A program made the position numbers and the translations under genes. From a virus (lineage: Duplodnaviria > Heunggongvirae > Uroviricota > Caudoviricetes), in the IMG/VR virus record IMGVR_UViG_3300031867_000014, positions 1 to 64,000 of that record: a stretch of DNA of 64,000 bases; one strand, written 5' to 3'. The notes beneath the pieces were generated by a model. That model had not been told where the DNA came from, ran no database searches, and saw only the letters and a program-made list of their open reading frames with translations. Shown here in pieces: positions 16,958 to 18,860 of the stretch (within the stretch, counting starts at the first letter, position 1; each line of letters begins with the position of its first letter).

Positions 16958-17587
16958 ATGTTAGATGATTTAACGGCCCTTTTAGATACATCTTCTATCG
17001 ACCCAGCTACATATTAGTATTTTAATAAACTGGAAAATGAACGCACTATCATCTTTAATCAAGAGGTAGATGAACGTATAGTCGAGAAAGTTGTAATTCC
17101 TTTAATGGATTTTGAAAAGGATTCAAGTATGGATCCTGTGACTCTCATTTTTGCTACTGTTGGTGGTAGTGTAAGTGATGGTTTTATTCTTTGTAATATT
17201 ATTGACACTTATAAAAAGCCTTTGAACATTATCGTTCTTGGATATGCTGCTTCAATGGGAACAATTATGCTTGCCGCAGGCTCTCATAATCCTAACGTTA
17301 CTCGCAAGTGTTATCCATTTACATATGCACTGCTACATGCCGGTAGTACTGCATTTAGTGGTGAGTCGCTTACAGTACAAGATACTCTTGAGTTTAACAA
17401 GAGAGTAGATGAAAAGGTTAAAAAGTTTATTGTGACCCATACCAATGTCTCAGAAGAAGAATACTCGCAGCATGAAAGAAAACAGTGGTTCCTTGACGCT
17501 GAAGATATGCTGAAATACGGATTCGTCGATGAAATTATTGGTAAGGAAGATGATTCACTTGAAAAGAACCAACTACAAGACGATTAA
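16958..17587 (+). CDS. ClpP-family serine protease-like protein; 1 in-frame TAG (17015)
   Basis: ATG 16958 (RBS TAGGAGGA) reads through TAG into ORF 17105..17587. The ClpP core 'GYAASMGTIMLAAG' is present, and the upstream extension supplies the missing N-terminal ClpP region. Confidence 0.7.
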
Positions 17588-18860
17588 ATTTTTTGATACC
17601 AGTGCTTTATTATCTGGATATAAACTTGACATCGAAGATTGGAATTTTATTAGTAACATTGTATTTGAAGAATTAGAACATATAAAGACATCATAGAACA
17701 AAGATGAAGCAATTAAATATAAAGCACGCTCCCTTGTGCGCTATTTAATGAAACATCGAGAACTATGGACATATAGTTGTGATGCTACACCAAAGCAGAT
17801 TGAAAAACTCCTTTCACGAAGCTCATATTTAGCAGACAACAATGATGGTAAATTAATTTGTGAAGCACGGTTATTGGCGCAATATTACCACTGTGATTCT
17901 GGTTTACCAGAAGATAAAAATCGCGAGCCAATTTTATATTTTATAACATCTGATGCATCTCAATATTTGCTCGCTACTTCATATCCAGAATTACATGCAA
18001 TGTATTATCAAGAGACGGCTCATAAAGAAGAACTCTGGACTGGGTACAAGGACGTCTACTTTGATGATGATATAGAAATGGCTTAGATTTATGAGCACCC
18101 TGAAGAGAATACAATGAAACTTGCTACTAATGAGTATGCAAAAGTATTCTATATGGGAGAACTTGCTGATCTAGTAAAATGGAATGGTGAAACACTCGAA
18201 GCCATTAAATATAAAGATTAGAATAGTGATTATTTCGGCAAGATTCAACCGCGCAATACTGAATAGAAATTATTCTTTGACTTATTACAGAATCGTGATA
18301 TTGAAATTAAATTAGTAAGAGGACAATACGGTTCGGGTAAAACTTTTTTGGCATTGGTACATGCTTTGAATTATATCAAGTGGCATAAATTTGACAAAAT
18401 CGTATATGTGAGAAATAATGTAGAAGTCGCTGGATCTCAAAGATTAGGCGCACTTCCAGGTGAGCAAGAGGATAAGTTAATGCCTTATATGATGCCGATG
18501 GCCGATATCTTGGGCGATGAAGAGGCTTTACGGCAAGAGTTAGAAATGGGTACTATTGAACCTGTGCATTTAGGTTTTATACGTGGGCGTAGCTTCAAAA
18601 ACTCTATTGTGTTTGTAGATGAAGCCGAGAATCTCACAACAGACAATATCAAGTTAATAGTGGGTCGTATAGGTGAGGGAAGTGAGCTCTGGGTACTTGG
18701 AGATGAATCCCAAACTGACTCTGATGTTTTCCGGAAAAATAGCGGCATAGCTTCACTTGTAAATAGCTTGAAAGGGAATCCGCACTTTGGTACGGTGGAA
18801 CTTCAGAAATCAGAAAGAAGTGCTATTGCTCAACTTGCCGCAGAGATCAGGGGTGCATAA
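17559..18860 (+). CDS. phoH: PhoH2-like protein (N-terminal PIN domain plus PhoH P-loop ATPase); 4 in-frame TAG codons (17694, 18084, 18219, 18264)
   Basis: TTG 17559 (RBS AAGGAAGA, 9 nt) runs in frame through ORF 17736..18086 and into ORF 18348..18860. PIN 'IKFFDTSALL' is followed by PhoH 'GQYGSGKTF...VFVDEAENLT...LGDESQTD'. The ORF caller split it into pieces. Confidence 0.7.

Follow-up and report, generated by a model that had tools for sequence, protein, structure and literature searches.

The 64-kb stretch of DNA analysed here (hereafter the window) is part of a 73.5-kb metagenomic phage contig (ENA ERZ27256863 k141_1511219; virus record IMGVR_UViG_3300031867_000014). It contains two overlapping genes, encoding a ClpP-like serine protease and a PIN-PhoH2 protein, that carry in-frame TAG codons inside a transcription unit whose first two genes carry none. 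TAG is decoded as glutamine (Gln), and the same gene-by-gene mosaic recurs in about a dozen relatives. On the strength of these sequences, we lean towards a reading in which the phage gates degradative enzymes through TAG and its own tRNA(CUA) while keeping its early genes TAG-free, such that the output of these enzymes would be delayed and probably reduced. The case bears on an open question, namely whether stop-codon recoding in phages is a regulatory device or a tolerated quirk. Here, we will describe the unit and its proteins, the distribution and meaning of TAG, and the explanations that may account for the observed pattern.

The ClpP–PhoH2 unit and its proteins

The ClpP-like and PIN-PhoH2 genes are the last two, promoter-distal genes of a four-gene unit, which together with its flanking signals consists of the following features:

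16000..16029, plus strand: terminator-like hairpin (16000-16019; 8 pairs, 6 GC; TTTTTATTTT) with a T-run, closing the preceding unit; the hairpin is at an equal place in relatives
16044..16099, plus strand: GC-rich element (…CGGTCG…GCGATCG…CAGCAATTTTTT…CAAATGG) directly 5′ of the −35 box; single copy in the window, conserved in 10 relatives
16104..16132, plus strand: sigma-70-type promoter of the four-gene unit, TTGACC-17-TATAAT (11/12 matches); conserved in relatives
16164..16604, plus strand: gene 1 of the unit, 146 aa, TAG-free; no Pfam or PHROG match; no TAG in 12 relatives
16564..16941, plus strand: gene 2 of the unit, 125 aa, TAG-free, also in relatives
16958..17587, plus strand: ClpP-like serine protease gene, 209 aa, one TAG at codon 20 (17015-17017); Pfam CLP_protease, 9e-30
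17529..18860, plus strand: PIN-PhoH2 gene, 443 aa, four TAGs; Pfam PhoH, 6e-43; PHROG 2765, 6e-77
18849..18879, plus strand: terminator-like hairpin (18849-18869) overlapping the PhoH stop codon; conserved in relatives
18897..18925, plus strand: next promoter, TTGAAA-17-TG-TATAAT, from the promoter scan; drives the TAG-free gyrB

The ATG of the ClpP-like gene lies 16 nt past gene 2 and is preceded by AGGAGG 9 nt upstream. The gap contains neither a terminator- nor a promoter-like site, an arrangement that is conserved. At its 3′ end the ClpP-like gene overlaps the PhoH2 gene by 59 nt. The four PhoH2 TAGs are found at codons 56, 186, 231 and 246 (17694-6, 18084-6, 18219-21 and 18264-6, respectively).

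A preliminary description of this DNA had placed the unit behind an early-family promoter at 16103. A promoter is indeed present (16104-16132), and the early promoter family is real, because its motif TGNTATAATAT has 11 exact copies and additional intergenic copies with one mismatch, all of them on the plus strand at 2-44 kb and none in the late arm. However, the promoter of the unit is not a plain member of this family: its −10 box resembles the family motif but is atypical, lacking the TG, and the promoter is accompanied by the unique, conserved GC-rich upstream element. The only other copy of this element in 3 Mb of loci is located upstream of a tRNA(CUA) promoter on a related contig (locus L173, 950-1010). 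We regard the element as a putative operator or activator site, and the two copies may represent either the site of a shared regulator or the remnant of a duplicated promoter. RNA structure predicted for the element scored no better than that of shuffled sequences (z -0.4).

The CLP_protease match spans residues 18-196 of the ClpP-like protein (104 bits versus a Pfam cut-off of 20.2), and the protein aligns end to end with cellular ClpP (S. aureus ClpP, residues 7-197, 2.5e-18). The catalytic Ser (AASMG) and His (LLHAG) are in place, whereas the position of the catalytic Asp is occupied by Gln (ERKQWF in the HMMER alignment), as it is throughout the close clade. Because the full Ser-His-Asp triad is absent, we refer to the gene as ClpP-like. 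Its single TAG aligns with the conserved Gln in a YQY motif. The PhoH2 protein resembles mycobacterial-type PhoH2 in combining a putatively PIN-like N-terminus with a Walker A-containing PhoH ATPase. The PhoH domain (PF02562, residues 238-430) scores 147 bits versus a cut-off of 27, and its Walker A motif GSGKT is invariant in the PhoH2 alignment. The N-terminal PIN_4 match is weak (18.1 bits, under the cut-off of 21.9); the PIN-like acidic residues D23, E48/E50, D106 and D142 are invariant among the 33 aligned PhoH2 homologues, in which TAG246 falls in a nearly invariant Gln column. Both proteins differ from their cellular counterparts in scoring far under the NCBIfam equivalog cut-offs (ClpP, 76-89 bits versus 228-309; PhoH2, 133 bits versus 680) and in being encoded by an overlapping, conserved gene pair in phage genomes. 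In phage contigs with PhoH identity as low as ~26% (loci L022-L088), the two genes are still neighbours, suggesting that they form a functional pair.

Distribution and meaning of TAG

The plus strand of the window carries nucleotide-metabolism, RNA-repair and replication genes between ~3.3 and 46.6 kb, and lysis and tail genes follow on the minus strand from 46.7 kb onward. TAG was counted relative to all Gln-type codons (TAG+CAA+CAG) in three gene classes: the late arms, four islands (the ClpP-like, PIN-PhoH2, GIY-YIG and RuvC genes) and the other 40 plus-strand genes. The two islands that lie outside the ClpP–PhoH2 unit are:

26533..27528, plus strand: GIY-YIG nuclease gene, its product with a membrane segment at the N-terminus and a coiled coil; one TAG at codon 42; 1-5 TAGs in relatives
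45713..46198, plus strand: RuvC-like resolvase gene (Pfam/PHROG); five TAGs at codons 8, 11, 46, 54 and 75; 3-8 TAGs in 10 close relatives

All four islands had been listed as recoded in the preliminary description, in agreement with the one, four, one and five in-frame TAGs counted here in ClpP-like, PIN-PhoH2, GIY-YIG and RuvC. Together they comprise one protease, one RNase/helicase and two DNA nucleases, all of them degradative enzymes. TAG makes up 29/212 Gln-type codons in the late arms and 11/51 in the islands, versus 0/426 in the other 40 plus-strand genes (Fisher 3e-15 against the late arms and 7e-12 against the islands). At the late rate, ~58 TAGs would be expected in these 40 genes, and off-frame TAGs are frequent in early genes (322). 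The TAG-free genes include those for GyrB, a GyrA-like subunit, ligase, RNase H, DnaB-like and UvrD-like helicases, a RecJ-like protein, Pol III alpha, NrdD, NrdG and dUTPase. This bears out the earlier statement that core replication genes lack TAG, except for the primase it had included, since a family search of the window genes identified none. At the other extreme, TAG accounts for 14-20% of Gln codons in genes for structural and lysis proteins, which are abundant; a tail-associated giant gene has 12 TAGs and the lysin gene two. None of 58 genes ends in TAG, their stop codons being TAA (40) and TGA (18).

TAG is decoded as Gln in these genes. Pfam, PHROG and PDB matches run through the TAGs of the interrupted genes. 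Four gene families provide 209 TAG occurrences; at 56.5% of them, the nearest relative lacking TAG at that place has Gln, corresponding to a 15-fold enrichment, and other TAGs sit in columns where all remaining sequences have Gln. Tryptophan (Trp) was considered as an alternative meaning, because it is the most frequent residue in a few TAG columns of RuvC and PhoH, and was ruled out by its 1.5-fold enrichment versus 15-fold for Gln. Pyrrolysine decoding was likewise rejected: TAG sites show no enrichment of Lys (1.3-fold), pyl genes were nowhere seen in the window, and the "tRNA-Pyl" label assigned by ARAGORN reflects the CUA anticodon alone. The strict avoidance of TAG in early genes provides indirect support for a host that terminates at TAG, as in the standard code. 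Under code 11, the ClpP-like, PhoH2, GIY-YIG and RuvC genes appear as fragments, and genomes of such phages need code-aware annotation gene by gene.

The relatives of this phage comprise about a dozen distinct sequences with PhoH proteins 55-79% identical, the PhoH homologues being located on contigs of up to 194 kb. The gene order is common to this dozen, and the succession of terminator, promoter, four genes and terminator was seen in 10/10 relatives with intergenic regions inspected. Across the relatives, TAG accounts for 20/139 Gln-type codons in ClpP, 77/429 in PhoH and 23/145 in GIY-YIG genes, versus 2 in ~1,370 in 17 other gene families, and the two genes upstream of ClpP are TAG-free in all of them. 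A similar picture emerges from the loci around NrdD, where RuvC of ten close relatives has 60/142 TAG (42% of Gln-type codons), versus three TAGs in ~820 Gln-type codons of dUTPase, NrdD, NrdG and Pol III. The positions of the TAGs shift between relatives; what is conserved is which genes hold them, with at least one TAG in the ClpP–PhoH pair wherever both genes were recovered from a relative with a PhoH identity of 55% or more. Because the same genes are TAG-bearing in relatives and their neighbours TAG-free, permissiveness for TAG is a conserved, gene-specific property. A locus search with a single protein, from the left-end gene of the window, returned zero relatives.

More distant relatives (loci L147, L127, L132 and L135; NrdD 65% identical) have TAGs in NrdD, Pol III alpha, RecJ-like and guanylate kinase genes as well. 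Recoding in the wider group ranges from islands to nearly genome-wide.

Proposed delayed translation and its alternatives

Completion of proteins in amber-suppressor-dependent phage mutants needs a tRNA(CUA) that competes with release factor 1 (RF1) at UAG. Compared with these classical mutants, the dependence considered here would be natural, spread over many genes and phage-supplied. Late suppression must be efficient, because structural and lysis genes use TAG freely. Combined with the absolute avoidance of TAG in the co-transcribed and neighbouring early genes, maintained across long divergence, this argues for a phase of infection in which TAG is not read. In addition, the presence of TAG-bearing genes amid TAG-free, co-transcribed neighbours in about a dozen relatives argues for different selection on TAG within one transcript. 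In the proposed mechanism, genes needed before effective suppression would stay TAG-free, whereas genes wanted only afterwards would be free to use TAG, some of them probably having been selected to do so. Early in infection, ribosomes would release a short peptide after halting at a 5′-proximal TAG (codon 20 of ClpP and codon 56 of PhoH), while translation of the co-transcribed upstream genes would run to completion. Full-length enzymes would appear with the accumulation of the suppressor tRNA, resulting in an output that is delayed, and probably reduced, relative to that of their operon mates. The island genes are evidently translated under this late, suppressing regime. The degradative nature of their products and their promoter-distal or post-terminator positions would fit a role in delaying or limiting harmful activities. 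Such gating would add a control layer independent of promoters, as the preliminary description had put it. What we infer here, rather than count, is the timing itself and that the TAGs have been selected instead of merely tolerated.

Several observations weigh against delayed translation, and a number of these concern the suppressor. Scans of the window and of 2 kb beyond it found no tRNA(CUA) or other tRNA, and scans of the close relatives' loci around PhoH and NrdD found none. The suppressor gene that the preliminary description had called for was located in related contigs instead. The syntenic contig IMGVR_UViG_3300028833_000076 (PhoH 61%, NrdD 82% identical) carries a tRNA cluster, including tRNA(CUA) (L173 1088-1179), on the early-arm strand ~11 kb upstream of the point that corresponds to window position 1, and 12 further metagenome contigs have the same tRNA(CUA). 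Two of these 12 contigs carry a downstream NlpC/P60 gene on the same strand, 74-75% identical to the one at 2613-3326 in the window, and one has a homologue of the leader at 2156-2510. Because these homologues link the tRNA(CUA) contigs to the window, the suppressor of the clade probably lies just beyond the left end of the window. A shared core among the suppressor tRNAs of distant relatives, sought for a pattern search, was not found. In the related contigs the suppressor usually has a consensus host-type promoter of the early family (sigma-70 with extended −10): TGGACA-17-TGCTATAATAT in L173 and TTGAC-17-TGnTAT(A/T)ATAT as its own promoter in 8/12 further contigs. Because this promoter belongs to the early family, late transcription of the suppressor is not what sets the gate, and the delay would then have to arise via accumulation, maturation or charging of the tRNA, or via competition with RF1.

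The variable arm of this tRNA(CUA) has a conserved 20-nt insertion, TATATCCCTCTGAAGGAGG, forming a hairpin that contains the Shine-Dalgarno-like GAAGGAGG (L173, L189-L200). The insertion is identical among tRNAs that differ in their acceptor stems, and two suppressors that are otherwise homologous lack it. A homologous version of this long-arm suppressor is found in phage phAss-1 (62442-62532).

The remaining points against delayed translation concern transcription and selection. The unique element upstream of the promoter suggests that the ClpP–PhoH unit may be under transcriptional control of its own. The TAG share of the islands is not different from that of the late arms (Fisher p 0.19), and neutral exchange between CAG and TAG in late-translated genes would give the same result. 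Furthermore, PhoH is without TAG in three relatives and ClpP in one. The similar shares and the TAG-less copies also favour tolerated drift, in which TAG is merely a synonymous Gln codon in late-needed genes, purged from earlier-needed ones, and the islands just report late action. We consider drift a serious possibility, if not a probable one. It is further supported by the rapid turnover of TAG positions between relatives and by the depletion of CAG in TAG-bearing genes, where TAG+CAG roughly equals the CAG share of TAG-free genes, as in mutational exchange. Speaking against drift are hints toward selection for TAG, which come from tests that are all post hoc, with small numbers and shared ancestry uncorrected (a limit that, particularly for the 5′-position statistics, also counts against delayed translation): the first Gln-type codon is TAG in 4/4 island genes (joint P 9e-4) versus 0/9 late genes, and the count in relatives is 19/37 versus 9.9 expected; TAG columns in ClpP cluster in the first 35 codons, recurring independently; and RuvC has a TAG share of 42% versus 20% in late genes (p 8e-6), with one RuvC site being TAG in 16/21 sequences that are 35-75% identical, and CAA and CAG nearly absent from that site. 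A bias of TAG towards the 5′ end in general was rejected, as the bias is limited to the ClpP and GIY-YIG columns (p 0.006 each) and is not clear in PhoH (p 0.06) or RuvC (p 0.15), which again counts against delayed translation. For the translational gating put forward in the preliminary description, the outcome is mixed: the Gln recoding, the single-gene mosaic and its conservation in relatives stand, whereas the island TAG share equals the late share and the suppressor is not late-transcribed.

The same suppressor promoter lends itself to another explanation, which we regard as somewhat unlikely. Here, suppression would be incomplete in competition with RF1, so that each TAG cuts the yield and keeps potentially toxic protease and nuclease levels low throughout infection. 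With an early-type promoter, the relatives' suppressor may be present from the start, and the TAG-bearing early-arm genes all encode degradative enzymes needed in small amounts, RuvC having the highest TAG density. However, the many TAGs in structural proteins made in high amounts, among them the 12 of the tail-associated giant gene, and the two in the lysin indicate that late suppression is not very inefficient, and ClpP usually has a single TAG. It is quite unlikely, in our estimate, that TAG mirrors late transcription, with the island genes expressed mainly from unrecognised late promoters or through antitermination and translation adding no layer. Consistent with such an explanation, the GIY-YIG gene directly follows a terminator-like hairpin (26480-26508) without a promoter of its own, the conserved element at the 16104 promoter could bind a regulator, and our promoter scan does not cover late promoter types. 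It is contradicted by the short gap between gene 2 and ClpP, with its conserved layout and lack of signals, and by the two genes upstream: because no relative has TAG in either of them, translation of the unit evidently takes place without suppression as well.

If the phage were temperate, the TAGs might block toxic enzymes expressed from leaky host-type promoters while prophage and suppressor are silent, comparable to a switch proposed for recoded prophages (Borges 2021, 10.1101/2021.08.26.457843). We find this very doubtful. In its favour are the SPbeta-like gene content (YorF, YorH, YorL-type polymerase) and a tyrosine recombinase gene in the syntenic relative (L172 2387-3433); against it, the 64-kb window showed neither an integrase nor a repressor or attachment site, close relatives were not found within bacterial genomes (the PhoH matches there are distant, 42-45% identical, in Clostridia-type contigs of metagenome-assembled genomes), and the suppressor promoter is of the same kind as those of the genes to be unlocked. 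The explanation that these are pseudogenes or assembly or sequencing errors we treat as refuted. The standard code does break the genes into fragments, but the interruptions are only TAG, never TAA or TGA, the domain matches are full-length with TAGs at conserved Gln, and independent assemblies of many relatives have TAGs in the same genes at other positions.

The tyrosine recombinase gene of IMGVR_UViG_3300028833_000076 is located between tail-fibre-like genes and NlpC/P60. It is absent at the corresponding place in the window and bears on whether the clade is temperate.

A more far-reaching form of delayed translation, which we think unlikely, holds that the TAGs of the degradative enzymes are positively selected, 5′-proximal locks, and that the suppressor and ClpP–PhoH share a cis-element, constituting a "suppressor regulon". 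If true, these locks would uncouple translation from transcription in host-promoter-driven operons, timing the release of destructive activities.

Known systems, affiliation and neighbouring genes

Stop-codon reassignment has been described mostly in late genes (Yutin 2021, PMC7886860), and it has been proposed that early genes remain in the standard code while recoding blocks late and lytic genes (Borges 2021, 10.1101/2021.08.26.457843). In the latter study, recoding of replication genes was variable, and a homing endonuclease inside an early gene was held back by in-frame stops. Because the early-standard/late-recoded idea is already published in these two studies, we view the present case as a well-resolved new instance of a known phenomenon in a different lineage. 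As in code-15 crAss-like phages (PMC7886860; Peters 2022, PMC9523058) and the Borges clades, TAG is read as Gln in part of the genome and replication genes keep the standard code. Also in common is a proposed translational block until the suppressor acts, and the relatives considered here carry a phage tRNA(CUA) too. Unlike crAss-like phages, this lineage is Firmicutes-type, kin of SPbeta and phAss-1 and not of Crassvirales. Unlike both the crAss-like and the Borges cases, the partition is resolved here to single genes within one promoter–terminator unit, the recoded early-arm set is conserved across the clade, and the suppressor has an early-type promoter. This makes the clade a clean comparative case, with an absolute TAG difference between co-transcribed neighbours, a conserved set of genes, positions that turn over and a visible class of suppressor promoter, allowing a timer, a limiter of dose and drift to be tested against one another.

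The best database relative for Pol III alpha is phAss-1 (proposed Phassvirus, OQ749652), in which several DNA-processing enzymes are reported to be recoded (Babkin 2023, PMC10607447). Like this phage, phAss-1 is TAG-recoded, and it carries three tRNA-Sup-CTA genes within its replication-arm strand. Its GIY-YIG homologue has five TAGs, in line with the TAG-bearing GIY-YIG genes of the clade, and its long suppressor tRNA has the anticodon arm and variable-arm insertion in common with the clade's tRNA(CUA). It is very distant, however, and differs in its TAG-free PhoH-like and RuvC genes and its TAG-bearing RecJ-like and NrdG genes; a ClpP homologue was not detected. The Pol III alpha of the window is ~38% identical to the counterparts in phAss-1, SPbeta-like and Enterococcus phages, and PhoH2 relatives are present in Clostridium, Bacillus and Enterococcus phages. 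A near-identity DNA search of GenBank phages with window 16-24 kb gave zero matches. We conclude that this is a large phage whose host is probably a member of the Clostridia, and that it is probably distant kin of the SPbeta and phAss-1 groups.

One further TAG-bearing gene of the plus strand is located near the left end of the window:

2613..3326, plus strand: NlpC/P60-like and SH3 gene, three TAGs; behind an early-family promoter (2164-2174) and a 440-nt untranslated leader

The stretch ahead of this gene (2139-2612) consists of the promoter, with TGCTATAATAT at 2164, followed by ~440 nt without a credible open reading frame, and shares 72% identity with a stretch of a related contig (L199) that is noncoding as well. 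This region may represent a structured leader or else a small RNA. Rfam gave nothing on the whole window, nor in sensitive mode on 2100-2700.

Between 3731 and 15987, the window holds a cluster resembling an RNA-repair and nucleotide-salvage set, every gene of which is TAG-free. It encodes a DUF2828/DUF7788 protein, a nucleoside deoxyribosyltransferase, a xanthine/uracil permease, an RNA ligase (PHROG 968), NADAR, a Band_7 protein, two metallophosphoesterases and a KTI12/AAA_33 kinase. In the TAG-free genes at 3731-5248, 9007-10428, 11875-12813 and 28255-29190, Gln is almost wholly encoded by CAG (11-16 CAG versus 0-1 CAA), whereas most of their neighbours favour CAA and CAG is depleted in TAG-bearing genes. 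This heterogeneous codon usage on the plus-strand arm possibly reflects different gene origins.

Directly after the TAG-rich RuvC gene, the early-arm strand carries a holin-like gene (PHROG 13712, 7e-27; 46189/46204-46617) with its own GGGAG ribosome-binding site within the 3′ end of RuvC. Unlike the minus-strand lysis genes, this gene is TAG-free, both in the window and in 10 relatives.

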